DNA of 3,879 nucleotides. Origin: a virus (Duplodnaviria > Heunggongvirae > Uroviricota > Caudoviricetes). Shown here in pieces: positions 1 to 3,879 of this stretch (the first letter of the stretch is position 1; the number at the start of each line of letters is the position of its first letter). Under the pieces are notes generated by a model, which saw nothing but the letters and a program-made list of their open reading frames with translations, was not told the origin of the DNA and did no database searches. Location of the stretch: the IMG/VR virus record IMGVR_UViG_2740892235_000014; one strand, 5' to 3'. The translations under genes were made by a program, and so were the position numbers.

Positions 1-1218
1 ATGAACAAACTGAGCGATACCTTGCTAAGGAAACTTCATGGTAAGCCAGCGGAGAAAAACACGTTTTATAGCGATGGCGGAAATCTGAGCGTGAAATATT
101 TAACATCAGGGAAATTAACCTGGTATTTCACTTACAGGGCAGGAACGGGAAGAGAGACACGACCGGAACGTATTAAGCTGGGAAATTATCCTGATCTGAG
201 CCTGAAAGCAGCCAGGGAAAAAGCCGCCCAGTGTCGCGCATGGCTGGCGGAGGGGAAAAATCCACGCCATGAGATGAATTACGCCGTACAGGAAGCGTTA
301 AAGCCGGTAACGGTTGGCGATGCGCTCACCTACTGGCTTGAGTCGTACGTAAAGGAAAACCGCGTGGATTATATCGCCCTGAAAAGGCGACTTAATAATC
401 ACGTAATACAGTACATTGGCGCTATGCCGCTGGATAAATGCGAGCTACGGCACTGGCTGGCCTGTTTTGACCAGGTGGCAAAGCGAACACCTGTTACTGC
501 CGGATTCGTGCTACAGACATGCAAGCAGGCGCTTAAGTTCTGCCGGAGGCGGCGCTTTGCAATCAGCAACGTTCTCGATGATCTGAACGTGGCGGACGTT
601 GGGAAAAAACCGGATATAAGCGAACGTGTCTTAAGCACCAAAGAACTGGGCGAGTTATTGCAGGCGCTGGATAAAAAAATATTTTCTCCTTACTACGTCG
701 CGTTAATCCGCCTCCTGATTGTCTTCGGAGCCAGGACGGTAGAACTGAGGTTATCGGAGATCAGCGAGTGGGATTTTACCGAAATGCTATGGACCGTTCC
801 GAAGGAGCACAGCAAAACGAAGGTTGCAATATTCCGGCCCATACCGGAAGCGATCCTGCCGTTCGTCACGCGGCTGGTGGACCAGAACAGGCACACGGGC
901 TTATTACTGGGGGAAGTGAAACAGGAGGCTAGCGTATCGCAGTACGGCAGATTAGCGCACAGGAGGCTAAAACACCCTCAATGGTCATTGCATGACATCC
1001 GGCGCACCTTTACAACCATGCTGAACGATTTAGGCGTTGATCCTCACGTCGTGGAGCAGCTTACAGGCCACCAGATGCCAGGAATGCAACGCGTGTACAA
1101 CCATTCCCGCTATATTGATGCGAAACGCAATGCGCTTGATATGTGGGTGGAGCGGTTGGAGATACTGGCGGGAACACATGAAAACGTAACCACGCTACCA
1201 GTAACCAGAATAAAATAA
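1..1218 (+). CDS. int: Site-specific tyrosine recombinase / integrase, P4-like family (405 aa)
   Basis: 405-codon ORF starting at the window edge. N-terminus (KNTFYSDGGNLSVKY...WYFTYR) resembles the arm-binding domain of P4-type integrases. C-terminus has the catalytic pattern: GARTVELRLSE (Arg), HDIRRTF (His-x-x-Arg), LTGHQ, and RVYNHSRY (candidate Tyr nucleophile). The true start could lie a few codons upstream of the window. Confidence 0.9.
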   Translation: MNKLSDTLLRKLHGKPAEKNTFYSDGGNLSVKYLTSGKLTWYFTYRAGTGRETRPERIKLGNYPDLSLKAAREKAAQCRAWLAEGKNPRHEMNYAVQEALKPVTVGDALTYWLESYVKENRVDYIALKRRLNNHVIQYIGAMPLDKCELRHWLACFDQVAKRTPVTAGFVLQTCKQALKFCRRRRFAISNVLDDLNVADVGKKPDISERVLSTKELGELLQALDKKIFSPYYVALIRLLIVFGARTVELRLSEISEWDFTEMLWTVPKEHSKTKVAIFRPIPEAILPFVTRLVDQNRHTGLLLGEVKQEASVSQYGRLAHRRLKHPQWSLHDIRRTFTTMLNDLGVDPHVVEQLTGHQMPGMQRVYNHSRYIDAKRNALDMWVERLEILAGTHENVTTLPVTRIK

Positions 1219-1310: not shown

Positions 1311-1407
1311 GAGGCCAAAAAGAATACAGATTTGTAAGTTGCTGATTTTTAATGCTCAGCTGGTTTTTTATACATTAGTGAATTACGCGTTAAAGTGTGC
1401 GAAAAAA

Positions 1408-1438
1408 GGCATAAAACAAGATTTTATGCCTTTGTATT
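1408..1438. terminator. Putative bidirectional intrinsic terminator between int and alpA
   Basis: 9-bp stem GGCATAAAA / TTTTATGCC (1408-1416 / 1422-1430) with a 5-nt loop, flanked by an A6 run upstream and TTTGTATT downstream. The stem is AT-rich, so strength is uncertain. Confidence 0.45.
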
Positions 1439-1502
1439 AACATGAATTTAAATGATTTTATCCTGATTATTCCTCTTTCTGTAAACCATGCGACACCAAC
1501 AT

Positions 1503-1592: not shown

Positions 1593-1781
1593 GTGTTAAG
1601 CACTGATCGGTTTATACGTGAAAAAGAATGCGAAAAGCTAACAGGCCTTAGCCGCTCATGCCGCTACCGCCTGGAAAAGGCCGGACAATTCCCATCACGT
1701 CGTAAACTTGGTGGGCGTTCTGTTGGCTGGTCTTTATCTGAGGTTTTGGCCTGGAAGGATAGCTGCAAGGCAGTTCACTAA
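1593..1781 (+). CDS. alpA: AlpA / Vis-family phage transcriptional regulator / excisionase-like DNA-binding protein (62 aa, GTG start)
   Basis: SD AAGGGGG at 1581-1587, 5 nt before GTG at 1593. The protein (EKLTGLSRSCRYRLEKAGQFPSRRKLGGRSVGWSLSEVLAW) matches the AlpA family pattern as I remember it: KTG-x-R-x-T-x-Y, FP, then LG-x-(R/K)-SVGW and a conserved W. Position right after int is typical. Confidence 0.85.
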   Translation: MLSTDRFIREKECEKLTGLSRSCRYRLEKAGQFPSRRKLGGRSVGWSLSEVLAWKDSCKAVH

Positions 1782-1922
1782 AAAGACTGGCGGCACACAG
1801 TCGCCACACATCCACTAATACAGAGATATAACTATGAAGATTGAATATGCGCCCGAACGTGGGCGGGGATTCGTTCGCCCTGGTGAAACTGAAAAACAAC
1901 AAAATTGGGGTTTTTCAGGCAT

Positions 1923-1950
1923 AAAAAAAGCGGCCCCGATATGGAGCCGC
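1923..1950 (-). terminator. Putative intrinsic terminator for the minus-strand small-gene transcript ending at 2025
   Basis: Hairpin GCGGCCCC-GATAT-GGAGCCGC (1930-1950, 8-bp stem with one mismatch). On the minus strand it is followed by a T7 run (complement of A7 at 1923-1929). It lies about 75 nt downstream of the 2025 stop. Confidence 0.5.
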
Positions 1951-2024
1951 CTTTCTGAACAATTAACCTGCTGCGCCTTATGTGTATGTGATCCCAAACA
2001 TAAGCACGGGAATGATAGCCGCTA

Positions 2025-2228
2025 TCAGGCTGGTGGGCAATTACCTTGCTTGTTGGGGCCGTATTGTGCTGCCATTTTCATCCGTTCAGAACGTGAATAT
2101 TTTTTTAGAAACTCATCAAGGACAAAAGCGCATGGAGCGAATCTTTCTGATTCATGCTCGAGCGCCATATTTTCGTGCTCTCTGTTCGTTTTTTGCGATG
2201 GTGTATTGGTTGATTCTTTATTGGTCAT
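2025..2228 (-). CDS. Hypothetical small protein (67 aa), paralog of the 2685-2912 ORF
   Basis: Minus-strand ORF starting MTNK. It shares the N-terminal MTN and a C-terminal motif FVLDEFLKKY (FALEDFVDKY in the paralog). It is preceded by the conserved 44-bp family A leader. No recognisable domain. Confidence 0.5.
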   Translation of the reverse strand: MTNKESTNTPSQKTNREHENMALEHESERFAPCAFVLDEFLKKYSRSERMKMAAQYGPNKQGNCPPA

Positions 2229-2236
2229 TGTGTGTA

Positions 2237-2280
2237 CCTGTAAAGCAATGCGCCGGAGTTCCTCACGCCACGGCGCTGAT
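2237..2280. repeat. Family A conserved leader element, copy 1 (44 bp, internal hairpin GCGCCG-N15-CGGCGC)
   Basis: 41/44 identical to 2921-2964. It lies 9 nt upstream of the minus-strand start codon at 2228. On the plus strand the hairpin is followed by TGATGTTTTTTATTCTTT. Confidence 0.65.
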
Positions 2281-2285
2281 GTTTT

Positions 2286-2390
2286 TTATTCTTTGGGTTC
2301 AATACCGCGTTGCTGTAATTCTTTTCGGATTATTCGTTTTATCCAAGCAGCTAAAGAGTCATCACCGTCTTGTTGTTGTGCTTTTTCCAT
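2286..2390 (-). CDS. Possible small ORF (34 aa, MEKAQQQDGDDSLAAWIKRIIRKELQQRGIEPKE)
   Basis: Found by manual translation of the minus strand; it is below the ORF-track size cutoff. Charged, helical-looking composition, weak SD (GGGAAAAG), and its stop abuts the family A copy 1 region. Could be spurious. Confidence 0.25.
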   Translation of the reverse strand: MEKAQQQDGDDSLAAWIKRIIRKELQQRGIEPKE

Positions 2391-2458
2391 CTTTTCCCGT
2401 AAGTCAGGATCTAAACGGAACTGGAAAGGAGGATTACCACGCCTTTCATTTTTGTGTG

Positions 2459-2486
2459 TTGACACGTCAATTACACTCCATATAAT
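2459..2486 (+). promoter_or_regulatory. Consensus sigma70 promoter P1 (TTGACA -16- TATAAT), plus strand, antisense to the minus-strand cluster
   Basis: -35 TTGACA at 2459-2464, 16-nt spacer, -10 TATAAT at 2481-2486; both hexamers match consensus exactly. Confidence 0.55.
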
Positions 2487-2492
2487 GTGTTT

Positions 2493-2508
2493 ATGTGTAT
2501 ATACACAT
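2493..2508. promoter_or_regulatory. Perfect 16-bp palindrome ATGTGTATATACACAT at the predicted transcription start of P1 (operator-like)
   Basis: Read directly; the reverse complement is identical. It sits 7 nt downstream of the -10 hexamer. Confidence 0.5.
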
Positions 2509-2530
2509 TACACACAACTAGCACAAAAAA

Positions 2531-2645
2531 CAACGCCCCGCAGTGATGGGAACACATACGGGGCGTCTAACCAAACCATTAATTGAGGAACGATTATGGC
2601 TATAAAAGAGCATAGCTTACTCTTTATACACACACAAACGCCCCG
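2531..2645 (+). repeat. Family B module, copy 1: leader hairpin + TCTAACCAA + SD + ATG + about 16 codons (MAIKEHSLLFIHTQTP), homologous to 3279-3390
   Basis: Hairpin ACGCCCCG / CGGGGCGT (2533-2540 / 2559-2566), SD GAGGAA at 2585-2590, ATG at 2596, then TACACACACAAACG. It aligns block-for-block with copy 2. The downstream 240-codon reading frame looks like antisense junk (S/C/R-rich) running across the minus-strand genes. Confidence 0.6.
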
Positions 2646-2684
2646 GAAACGGAATAATCCGTTTCATAGTTCGGTTTTGTGCAC

Positions 2685-2912
2685 TCATCCTGGCGGTCGG
2701 TTTTTGCCGGATTTAAGCCGCCGTGGGTATTTATCGACAAAATCTTCAAGGGCAAATTTTTCTGGTGGCACTAAGCGCGGCGCTGGTGGTGGTATTTTTG
2801 TTCTGGTTAGTTCTTCCTCAAGTCTGGCGCAGGCTTCTGACTGCCTTTGCCGGATGATTTCATCATCTTGCGTTTGCGTGTCTTGTATTGGTGATAGTGT
2901 GTTGTTGGTCAT
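2685..2912 (-). CDS. Hypothetical small protein (75 aa), paralog of the 2025-2228 ORF; probably co-transcribed with the upstream RHH gene
   Basis: Minus-strand ORF starting MTNN, with an acidic, proline-rich middle and the C-terminal motif FALEDFVDKY. Preceded by family A copy 2. No recognisable domain. Confidence 0.55.
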   Translation of the reverse strand: MTNNTLSPIQDTQTQDDEIIRQRQSEACARLEEELTRTKIPPPAPRLVPPEKFALEDFVDKYPRRLKSGKNRPPG

Positions 2913-2920
2913 GATACTGC

Positions 2921-2964
2921 CCTGTAAAGCAATGCGCCGTAGTACCTCACACCACGGCGCTGAT
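2921..2964. repeat. Family A conserved leader element, copy 2 (44 bp, hairpin GCGCCG-N15-CGGCGC)
   Basis: 41/44 identical to 2237-2280. It lies between the RHH stop (2970) and the start codon at 2912. Confidence 0.65.
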
Positions 2965-2969
2965 AGTGA

Positions 2970-3149
2970 TTATTCTGATTCTTTGGCCTTGCGGCGCTGG
3001 CGGCGTTTGATCTCGCCTTCAAGTGCCGAAACGATAAATTGCCCTGTACTTTCGCCATCTTCCTTTAAATTTTCTACAGCATCAGCTATTGCGTGTGGTA
3101 CTCGAGCCTCAAGCTTTTTGGATTTTGCATTAACTGCTTTTGTTGCCAT
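2970..3149 (-). CDS. Arc-type ribbon-helix-helix DNA-binding protein (59 aa), putative transcriptional repressor
   Basis: Internal start ATG at 3149 with SD GAGGAA 8 nt upstream. The protein MATKAVNAKSKKLEARVPHAIADAVENLKEDGESTGQFIVSALEGEIKRRQRRKAKESE aligns with phage P22 Arc as I remember it: RWP-REVLDLVRKVAEENG-RSVNSEIYQRV versus RVP-HAIADAVENLKEDG-ESTGQFIVSAL. The 106-aa extension in the ORF track has no SD and a hydrophobic junk-like N-terminus. Confidence 0.7.
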   Translation of the reverse strand: MATKAVNAKSKKLEARVPHAIADAVENLKEDGESTGQFIVSALEGEIKRRQRRKAKESE

Positions 3150-3170
3150 ATCTGATTTCCTCGTTATTAG

Positions 3171-3251
3171 GTGGCTGACAGTATACACACAAGAAAACGG
3201 AAAAACACTATTGACGTGGCTGACACCCGTTACTAATATAGTGGCTGACAC
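3171..3251. promoter_or_regulatory. Three direct repeats of GTGGCTGACA (3171-3180, 3216-3225, 3241-3250): candidate operator array
   Basis: Exact 10-mer three times in the divergent intergenic region. Copy 2 lies in the spacer of promoter P2 and copy 3 at its predicted transcription start. RHH proteins typically bind direct or inverted repeat arrays. Confidence 0.5.
3211..3239 (+). promoter_or_regulatory. Sigma70 promoter P2 (TTGACG -17- TAATAT) for the plus-strand operon
   Basis: -35 TTGACG at 3211-3216, 17-nt spacer, -10 TAATAT at 3234-3239. It has the same position relative to the family B hairpin and ATG as P1 has in copy 1. Confidence 0.55.
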
Positions 3252-3278
3252 CTTTATCAAGGTAATCGATGAAAAGAC

Positions 3279-3390
3279 AAAGCCCCGCAAGTGTCGTTAC
3301 CACTCGCAGGGCTTCTAACCAACAACGTAAACTAGGAGCCGTTATGGTTGCTGTAAATCATATACCACACCTTGTACACACACAAACGGC
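3279..3390 (+). repeat. Family B module, copy 2: leader hairpin + TCTAACCAA + SD + ATG + first codons of the Icd-like ORF
   Basis: Imperfect 14-bp stem AAGCCCCGCAAGTG / CACTCGCAGGGCTT (3280-3293 / 3301-3314, 12/14 paired) with a 7-nt loop, SD AGGAG at 3334-3338, ATG at 3344, then TACACACACAAACG. Confidence 0.6.
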
Positions 3391-3541
3391 CTTTGTGTGG
3401 CGTTTTCTGGCACTGAGTGCCGGAGAATCTCAAATCATCCACGTAACCGCCTGGACGGAACGCGAAGCGCGTAACCGTTGCCCGTCCGGTTGTGTTGCTG
3501 TATTTGCCGCCCGTATTCGTCAGGAGGTGCGCCATGATTAA
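3344..3541 (+). CDS. Small protein (65 aa), tentatively Icd-like (host cell division inhibitor-like / P4 Ash-region type)
   Basis: SD AGGAG 5 nt before ATG at 3344. The protein MVAVNHIPHLVHTQTAFVWRFLALSAGESQIIHVTAWTEREARNRCPSGCVAVFAARIRQEVRHD fits my recollection of Icd-like proteins (VW-F-A, TE-EAR, V-FA-R); this is unverified. The alternative upstream start at 3269 (90 aa) has a weaker SD. Confidence 0.5.
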   Translation: MVAVNHIPHLVHTQTAFVWRFLALSAGESQIIHVTAWTEREARNRCPSGCVAVFAARIRQEVRHD

Positions 3542-3746
3542 TCTGTCACTTACTGACCTTAACCGCATTCAGTTTCGTGAGAAATTCACAGGGCAGCTAC
3601 TGGTCAATGTGGATAAAGGTCGCGTGGTGTGTAATTACCACTTACCAGATGAAGCAATTGTCGCCACAAGGGAATCATTACAGGAAATCACAAAACGTGC
3701 CGGAATGATTAACACGAATATTCAGGGGATGCTTTATGCACAATAA
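3534..3746 (+). CDS. Hypothetical protein (70 aa), translationally coupled to the upstream ORF
   Basis: Strong SD AGGAGG at 3523-3528, 5 nt before ATG at 3534. The start overlaps the upstream stop as ATGATTAA. The protein MINLSLTDLNRIQFREKFTGQLLVNVDKGRVV... has a balanced composition; no family recognised. The GTG at 3492 used by the ORF track lacks an SD. Confidence 0.6.
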   Translation: MINLSLTDLNRIQFREKFTGQLLVNVDKGRVVCNYHLPDEAIVATRESLQEITKRAGMINTNIQGMLYAQ

Positions 3747-3820
3747 AACCACACCGGACGCAGCCGCCGAAGCCATCAAAACGCTGATGCACGCGCTGAT
3801 TGATATTTCTGTTATCGCGG
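3736..3820 (+). CDS. 5' end of a further ORF (MHNKTTPDAAAEAIKTLMHALIDISVIA...), interrupted by the assembly gap
   Basis: ATG at 3736 overlaps the upstream stop at 3744-3746, with SD-like AGGGGA at 3724-3729. The frame is open until the N run, so the true length is unknown. Confidence 0.35.
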
Positions 3821-3830
3821 NNNNNNNNNN
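3821..3830. other. Assembly gap (10 N)
   Basis: Ten consecutive n characters. Contiguity and reading frame of 3831-3879 relative to the upstream sequence cannot be assumed. Confidence 1.
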
Positions 3831-3879
3831 CGATTATACTCGGTCAGACTTTTCGCCAGTTGAATGCGCCAGTGGATGA

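Follow-up and report, generated by a model that had tools for sequence, protein, structure and literature searches.

What controls the small icd-like gene that stands first in the early operon of a phage satellite? The question is raised by a stretch of 3,879 nucleotides of Caudoviricetes DNA (IMG/VR record IMGVR_UViG_2740892235_000014; the whole stretch is hereafter called the window), in which a divergent regulatory gene and a leader precede an open reading frame (ORF) of 65 codons. The original prediction read this region as an immunity operon of the phage P1 c4-icd-ant or satellite P4 CI type, with a regulatory RNA derived from the leader itself. The explanation that we consider probable is that a cis-antisense RNA of ~79 nt, running from 3349 to 3271 on the opposite strand and here called asRNA-B, would block translation of the icd-like gene in the control region of the satellite, much as the SymR RNA of E. 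coli acts on its own target. The comparisons described below suggest that asRNA-B is a cis-antisense RNA of the SymR type, taking the place of the C4/CI RNA at the head of satellite early operons. asRNA-B is unannotated in RefSeq, where coding sequence (CDS) features are the only ones beneath the matches, and is absent from Rfam. Searches of the literature on SymR and on phage-inducible chromosomal islands (PICIs), covering open-access papers and preprints, gave no mention of the cassette and nothing of relevance on its motif or on antisense RNAs in PICIs.

The region in question (module B, 2909-3420) is present in the window in a second copy (module A, 2225-2680) with which it aligns at a mean identity of 73%. 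Related loci were fetched from E. coli genomes and other species, and a pattern scan of viral contigs added a further 120; a scan of a general genome-contig collection gave 6 loci, far fewer than the E. coli genome and viral-contig collections yielded. The hairpin at 3279-3315 is flagged by a terminator scan on the minus strand only, and is the more stable on that strand both in the window (-25.1 kcal/mol for minus vs -15.9 kcal/mol for plus) and in 42 of 44 distinct variants; where the plus strand has C.A and A.C mismatches, the minus strand has G.U pairs. The 8-nt tail 3' of the minus-strand hairpin is on average 59% T. A covariance model, R1, was built from 31 minus-strand homologues, with rows identical to the window excluded. 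It matches the minus strand of the window twice, with 72.4 bits at 3271-3350 and 75.8 bits at 2524-2602, and scores 15.6 bits on the plus strand. The R1 alignment holds 99 hits (56 distinct), in which 97.8% of the pair cells are paired on the minus strand. Among the 56 distinct homologues compensatory changes are found in 11 of the 18 pairs, a result matched by none of 500 shuffles, and G.U cells outnumber A.C cells by 171 to 3, so that the mirror structure on the plus strand is only 81.1% paired. This asymmetry assigns the functional fold to the minus strand. The complete asRNA-B sequence folds at -35.4 kcal/mol (z = -5.66, compared with z = -1.9 for the plus strand) and would cover, by complementarity, the final ~73 nt of the 5' untranslated region (UTR) with its Shine-Dalgarno sequence (SD), and then the start codon plus 3 nt beyond it.

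The position of a candidate promoter points the same way. A TATGAT hexamer lies at +14 to +19 of the icd-like gene, exactly where TAGAAT lies in symE, which places the predicted 5' end of asRNA-B, by analogy with the geometry of SymR, at 3349. When upstream sequences are aligned at the point where the conserved 5' helix (A[G/A]CCA) begins, a TAnnnT motif is found 6-7 nt 5' of the predicted RNA 5' end in 40 of 41 distinct sequences, with hexamers that include TATGAT, TATGCT, TATAAT, TAAAAT and TAGAAT. These hexamers lie inside unrelated coding sequences, among them several Icd N-terminal variants and HNH_3/AP2 nuclease genes. In an Icd variant whose -10 hexamer is 6 nt closer to the ATG, the partner of the 5' helix is displaced by the same 6 nt, and the icd genes with a C4-type leader have no antisense -10 hexamer at all. 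The predicted -35 hexamer falls within the block TACACACACAAACG, the last stretch kept between modules A and B, and the right homology boundary between the modules lies just past it. At the other end, the homology that many E. coli loci share with the window has its left boundary at 3270-3273, coinciding with the predicted 3' end of the RNA.

In E. coli K-12, symE and SymR form a type I toxin-antitoxin pair. SymR blocks translation of its overlapping gene (PMC4147584). asRNA-B is predicted to lie, as SymR does, opposite the 5' end of its target and to cover the SD and start codon; a -10-type hexamer stands at +14 to +19 of the target in both loci, the RNA 5' end is annotated at +6 for SymR and predicted at +6 for asRNA-B, and the lengths are 77 nt for SymR and ~79 nt for asRNA-B. 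The predicted minimum-free-energy folds are alike in having two domains, a stem-loop at the 5' side, whose apical loop holds or adjoins the anti-SD, and then a 3' hairpin (z = -5.7 for asRNA-B, -5.1 for its module A counterpart, asRNA-A, and -5.3 for SymR); across the 56 distinct sequences both helices covary or are conserved. Each RNA begins A(G/A)(U/C)CAUAAC and carries UG(A/G)UUAG just 5' of the 3' hairpin. The Rfam SymR model (RF01809, gathering score 61 bits) scores on the antisense strand of two relatives, L131 (40.5 bits) and L023 (32.8 bits), and SymR is itself the top-scoring R1 match in the 10 kb of K-12 that surround symE. Membership of the SymR family was considered and rejected: the Rfam scores are all below threshold, and we therefore class the element as SymR-like and do not file it in RF01809. 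The two systems differ in their target, which is Icd-like in the window, and an HNH/AP2 nuclease in other loci, and not SymE; in the 3' hairpin, which is followed by a canonical U-tract in the window and not in K-12 SymR; in the sense promoter, that of symE having a LexA box and that of the window carrying repeats beside a divergent gene of the YlcI/YnfO family; and in location, the window cassette heading a satellite early/replication operon. A further parallel is offered by the sar RNA of phage P22, a short cis-antisense RNA encoded in the arc-ant intercistronic region of immI that pairs with the ribosome-binding site (RBS) of ant, with an Arc-type repressor nearby. The window resembles this arrangement in having a predicted short cis-antisense RNA over an RBS in a candidate immunity region with a putative Arc-type repressor; no sequence or family link to sar was found, and Rfam gave no match to it.

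Several observations weigh against an antisense RNA of this type. The predicted antisense -35 is weak (3/6 positions) and the site is not flagged by a simple promoter scan. The window copies give no Rfam SymR match even at E<=10 (2480-3420), the R1 match on SymR is marginal (13.5 bits, E 0.09), and the similarity in primary sequence is modest (median z 1.3; 2.1 for asRNA-B). Most homologues came from the pattern scan, which fixed the motif GGGGC[GT]TCTAACCA[AC]C, so that conservation of this motif among them is by construction; loci L004-L023, which were fetched otherwise, show it independently. Alignment A4 was fitted to the minus-strand model, a procedure of which the G.U/A.C count is independent. 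Finally, the T-tract of the minus strand has a second possible explanation in several of the AT-rich loci, where the A-rich tract that precedes the hairpin is the start of the sense transcript as well.

The weak -35 leaves room for another reading, in which the hairpin is an insulating terminator, acting on the minus strand or in both directions, that keeps stray antisense transcripts out of the repressor gene and promoter, and no dedicated regulatory RNA is made. The strong minus-strand terminator features also favour it. It does not account, however, for a 5' helix (AGCCA/UGGUU) that is conserved and has the anti-SD in its loop, for the fixed spacing of 6-7 nt between this helix and the -10 hexamer (40 of 41 contexts), or for module A having kept precisely the segment that extends from the terminator to the -35. 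We consider it unlikely.

Alternatively, the structure might act within the sense mRNA, as a stabiliser of the 5' UTR, as a site for RNase III or RNase E, or by sequestering the start codon through AACCA/UGGUU pairing. All of the Watson-Crick pairs form on the plus strand too (81% paired), the plus-strand fold allows AACCA and UGGUU to pair on either side of the SD hairpin, and some loci have the hairpin right at the start of the sense transcript. The strand comparison argues the other way on each count made (171 vs 3 G.U/A.C cells, z of -1.9 for plus vs -5.7 for minus, R1 scores of 15.6 vs 72.4 bits), and a role in the sense mRNA seems to us quite improbable as the main function. The mirror fold of the plus strand may nevertheless be used for kissing-loop pairing with the antisense RNA, in which case the two ideas would be partly compatible.

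The original prediction of a C4/CI-type RNA processed from the sense leader, either to pair with the icd RBS as in P1 or to terminate the transcript early as in P4, is highly improbable. Its attraction lies in the gene, which is Icd-like, in the sibling satellites and P4, which hold isrK and C4 at exactly this position, and in a loose resemblance of the hairpin and following ..ACCA to the outer stem and ACCA tail of C4. C4 and isrK profiles are noted to match Gram-negative PICIs (PMC10111431). Rfam/Infernal searches with C4 (RF01695, gathering score 45 bits), isrK (RF01394) and c4-a1b1 (RF03163) gave no match at E<=1 in the window or at E<=10 in 2480-3420, whereas the positive controls were recovered without difficulty: P1 with C4 at 68.8 bits and c4-a1b1 at 51 bits, P4 with C4 at 74.9 bits and isrK at 60.8 bits (both directly 5' of the ORF that occupies the position of the Icd-like genes), and sibling PICIs with C4 at 72-78 bits in the equivalent place. 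The three-helix fold of C4, an outer stem enclosing two hairpins, was not found; 3279-3315 is a single stem-loop, with A.C in the sense hairpin where the antisense strand has G.U, and the sense leader has no U-tract terminator. Complementarity in cis between loop and RBS, examined by eye, amounts to 5-6-nt matches with none longer than ~6 nt. Among the fetched loci three hairpin variants share one RBS variant and one hairpin occurs with three RBS variants; as the two are shuffled independently, without co-variation of loop and RBS, pairing like that of the P1 a' and b' loops is unlikely. The missing C4 match, the single stem-loop, the shuffled RBS and the G.U/A.C asymmetry together make a cis-encoded SymR-like RNA the likely regulator in place of one processed from the leader. 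The window thus shares with P1 c4-icd-ant (immI) and the P4 CI seqA-seqC system an Icd-like first gene and a small RNA predicted to mask its RBS. It differs in that the RNA is on the opposite strand with its own predicted promoter and terminator, and in lacking the three-helix fold, the a'/b' loops, ant and an isrK/seqA-type upstream element, which P1, P4, L005, L010, L016, L020 and L022 all carry. Of the broader idea of an immunity switch, the divergent control region of a mobile element stands, as does the general theme of antisense control of an icd-like first gene; the C4/CI mechanism does not. Two other readings of the sense strand were tried and rejected. An RNase P-type hairpin + NCCA mimic is disfavoured by the CCA being 4 nt off the stem, and the sequence is better read as one side, the 3' one, of the 5' helix in the antisense RNA. 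A sense-strand attenuator is disfavoured by the lack of a U-tract on the plus strand after the 3279-3315 hairpin and a z of -0.5 for a further hairpin at 3379-3399.

The related loci carry one or other of two leaders. In the first type isrK and C4 (62-78 bits) precede the icd-like gene, as in L005, L010b, L016b, L020 and L022; L005, L020 and L022 have C4 and no R1 match. The second type has the hairpin of the window followed by CTAACCA, and is found in both window modules, in Shigella, in Morganella, in EcCICFT073 (L021, cassette at 1615-1695) and elsewhere. Region 3150-3545 is matched in 1065 of 5426 complete E. coli genomes, about a fifth. Two loci (L010 1501-2255 and L016 1501-2132) are stacked, with an early promoter, a SymR-like cassette and icd remnant, isrK, C4 and an intact icd-like gene, and so present both RNA systems in series along one transcript. 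An HNH_3/AP2 nuclease gene follows the cassette in L026 (1173-1739) and in comparable AT-rich viral contigs (L024, L030, L034, L056 and others). It belongs to a phage early region in which VRR-NUC, a RecA-dependent nuclease and a DNA methylase are encoded as well, and the cassette thus also accompanies genes other than Icd-like ones. A separate observation concerns CDS annotated as 'ash family protein' (PF10554), which overlap the isrK/C4 genes in L010 (1695-2033), L016 (1572-1910), L020 (1127-1453) and L022 (980-1348), while the PF10554-bearing N-terminal extensions of some Icd-like proteins (P0049, P0052, P0112) are the translated isrK/C4 RNA region. Part of the Ash family, if not all of it, may thus be artefactual, the product of reading the C4/CI RNA locus as protein.

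As proposed originally, the 65-aa ORF (3344-3541, plus strand) is Icd-like, matching NCBIfam NF033153 (phage_ICD_like) over residues 17-60 with 64.8 bits (E = 5.2e-18, cutoff 25). The same CDS is called by the Prokaryotic Genome Annotation Pipeline (PGAP), and 113 homologues were collected. The SD lies at 3334-3338, its AGGAG 6 nt 5' of the start codon (3344-3346). P1 Icd and the window protein are 36.5% identical with the WRF core kept, and a tblastn search with the latter reached P1 only at E ~7. A terminator-like hairpin (CACACAAACGGCCTTTGTGTG + GCGTTTTCTG) at 3379-3399 on the plus strand, in icd codons 12-19 and overlapping the antisense -35, is probably incidental given its z of -0.5 vs shuffles and its absence from other Icd N-terminal variants. 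The overlapping stops and starts described for the downstream ORFs are present: ATG 3534 overlaps the TAA at 3539-3541, and ATG 3736 lies ahead of the TAA at 3744-3746. Neither of these two ORFs has a Pfam or NCBIfam family. The second is interrupted by a run of ten N (3821-3830) and is found intact, with 86 codons, at 15735-15995 of locus L001. The expected P1-like ant downstream of icd has no homologue here; the unassigned PHROG ORFs are followed instead by DUF4222 and a RepA-family helicase.

On the sense side, the 'strong promoter' of the original prediction is a TTGACG-17-TAATAT site at 3211-3239 (plus strand) that agrees with consensus at 9 of 12 positions. It is present as described and not strong: a promoter scan found 5 such sites vs 5.4 expected in shuffles, so that this one is not above chance alone and is plausible only because of its position in the divergent intergenic region. 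The operator-like repeats are three exact direct copies of GTGGCTGACA at 3171-3180, 3216-3225 and 3241-3250, two of which overlap the promoter-like site; they are candidate operators, to which the divergent repressor may bind. That candidate repressor is encoded by a 59-aa gene (2970-3149, minus strand) of the YlcI/YnfO family (NF041551, 60.6 bits, cutoff 30). The label 'Arc-like repressor' corresponds to phrog_228, which is matched only by the module A paralogue (1.5e-6). The module B protein has no sequence match in the PDB, and single-sequence AlphaFold gives two helices and no strand at a predicted local distance difference test (pLDDT) score of 74. The strand of ribbon-helix-helix proteins forms only in the dimer. 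The leader described as structured begins near 3246, extends for ~98 nt as far as the ATG at 3344, and does contain the 3279-3315 hairpin, but the plus-strand leader as a whole shows no structure beyond that of shuffles (z = 0.09).

The second leader noted in the original prediction (2490-2600, module A) is a true paralogue of the module B leader. It has its own predicted antisense RNA, asRNA-A, which folds at -31.1 kcal/mol (z = -5.11) with a terminator followed by UUGUUUUUUG, and a -10 hexamer (TATGCT, 2609-2614) and -35-like hexamer (TTGTGT, 2632-2637) in the same geometry as in module B. The two RNAs are 70% identical, with perfect cross-complementarity limited to 9 nt. Downstream of the module A promoter there are only the leader and an icd remnant of ~15 codons (ATG 2596), and a hairpin at 2647-2668 seems to be all that the sense transcript then meets. 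Four other elements (L036, L051, L082 and L089) also have two R1 matches each. Module A may provide a second immunity specificity or act as a decoy. Between each repressor gene and the next small gene lies a minus-strand hairpin with flanks, CTGTAAAGCAATGCGCCG...CACGGCGCTGAT (2934-2960 and 2250-2276), that is ~90% identical between modules that are elsewhere 73% alike and is seen again in 14 of the fetched loci. It folds with z = -3.8 in module B and z = -0.6 in module A, and may be an intercistronic terminator or processing site.

Table 1. Predicted RNA elements, promoters and genes of the window. Positions are those of the window; R1 is the covariance model described in the text.
Feature	Position	Strand	Evidence and remarks
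asRNA-B, predicted ~79-nt SymR-like cis-antisense RNA	3271-3349 (3349->3271)	-	R1, fold, SymR analogy
Terminator hairpin of asRNA-B	3279-3315	-	15 bp, then GUCUUUUC at 3278-3271
Predicted antisense -10, TATGAT	3357-3362	-	inside icd codons 5-7
Predicted weak antisense -35, TTGTGT	3380-3385	-	3/6, 17 nt from -10; read from sequence
asRNA-A, second predicted SymR-like antisense RNA	2524-2601 (2601->2524)	-	R1, 75.8 bits
Module A sense promoter, TTGACA-16-TATAAT	2459-2486	+	promoter scan, 12/12
Module A divergent 59-aa regulator	2286-2465	-	NF041551, 20 bits, below cutoff 30; paralogue of 2970-3149
70-aa ORF	3534-3746	+	phrog_340, 1e-23; PHROG of no assigned function
86-aa ORF, start only	3736-3879	+	phrog_2512/5146; PHROGs of no assigned function; cut by N-run and window end
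Integrase	1-1218		island left end
AlpA	1593-1781		

The window is 100% identical to E. coli chromosomes, and makes up the left end of an island of ~15 kb in strain 12E115. In the annotation of L001 the island is inserted in tqsA, between the two halves of that gene, and reads int, alpA, the two divergent small-gene modules, the small-ORF operon, DUF4222 and the RepA-family helicase, followed by SSB, PerC, the major capsid protein, prohead protease, portal, head closure, connector, HNH, terS and terL; no tail genes are annotated in the ~15 kb. This tail-less order from int to terL is shared with the Gram-negative PICIs (EcCICFT073) and capsid-forming PICIs (EcCIEDL933 type), and the element is, with every gene expected of one, a capsid-forming PICI (cf-PICI)-type satellite. 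A BLAST search of INPHARED phages with region 1900-3879 gave no DNA match. The interval that separates int from alpA has two features of note. Repeats of a short ACAA/CACAAT/CAACGTGA type form clusters at 1255-1310 and 1515-1560 and may be arm-type sites of the integrase or AlpA binding sites. At 1369-1447 (plus strand), an AT-rich hairpin ~150 nt beyond the int stop is covered by a match to the Brucella small RNA BSnc120 in Rfam, which at 27.9 bits against a gathering score of 114 is most likely due to chance.

Read together, these features suggest how the control region might work. The YlcI/YnfO-family repressor probably binds the GTGGCTGACA repeats over the early promoter and so would set the rate of sense transcription. 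The early transcript would comprise the ~98-nt leader, the Icd-like 65-aa protein, the overlapping small ORFs and, later, the replication genes. On the opposite strand, a weak-to-moderate promoter within icd codons 5-14 would drive the ~79-nt RNA to the terminator (3315-3279) and its U-tract. This RNA is predicted to display the anti-SD CUCCU in the apical loop of its 5' stem-loop, next to the terminator hairpin; as its complementarity takes in the whole of the SD and start codon, it should prevent the icd-like mRNA from being translated. With the leader-proximal cistron untranslated, the downstream operon, replication genes included, would be damped as well, and the block would last until the derepressed early promoter out-titrates asRNA-B. 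What the analysis shows is the sequence features themselves, their covariation and strand asymmetry, the geometry of the promoter and the distribution of the family; from these we infer that the RNA is made, that translation is repressed and that the repressor occupies its repeats. The cassette would then be a functional alternative to the C4/CI RNA at the same place in sibling satellites.

To our knowledge, how the early/replication operon is silenced in Gram-negative and capsid-forming PICIs is poorly understood beyond AlpA. Our findings suggest that many satellites, including the model island EcCICFT073, use a SymR-type cis-antisense switch instead of C4/CI. Tentatively, and with considerable doubt, one might go further and see the cassette as belonging to a large unannotated SymR-like family, with SymR as its sole characterised member, that supplies the early operons of PICIs, cf-PICIs and some prophages with portable immunity or gating modules at their head. 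These modules would be swappable with C4/CI and would guard potentially toxic first genes, such as those for Icd-like proteins and HNH/AP2 nucleases, and elements with two cassettes would have two RNA specificities that could exclude competing satellites. If the SymR-type switch is borne out, the icd-like family would be controlled by two unrelated RNA mechanisms that are exchanged by recombination, and the orphan chromosomal symE/symR pair would take its place within a wider mobile-element family. The predicted RNA of ~80 nt would also be an element that genome annotation currently misses, and one of relevance to engineering the induction of PICIs.

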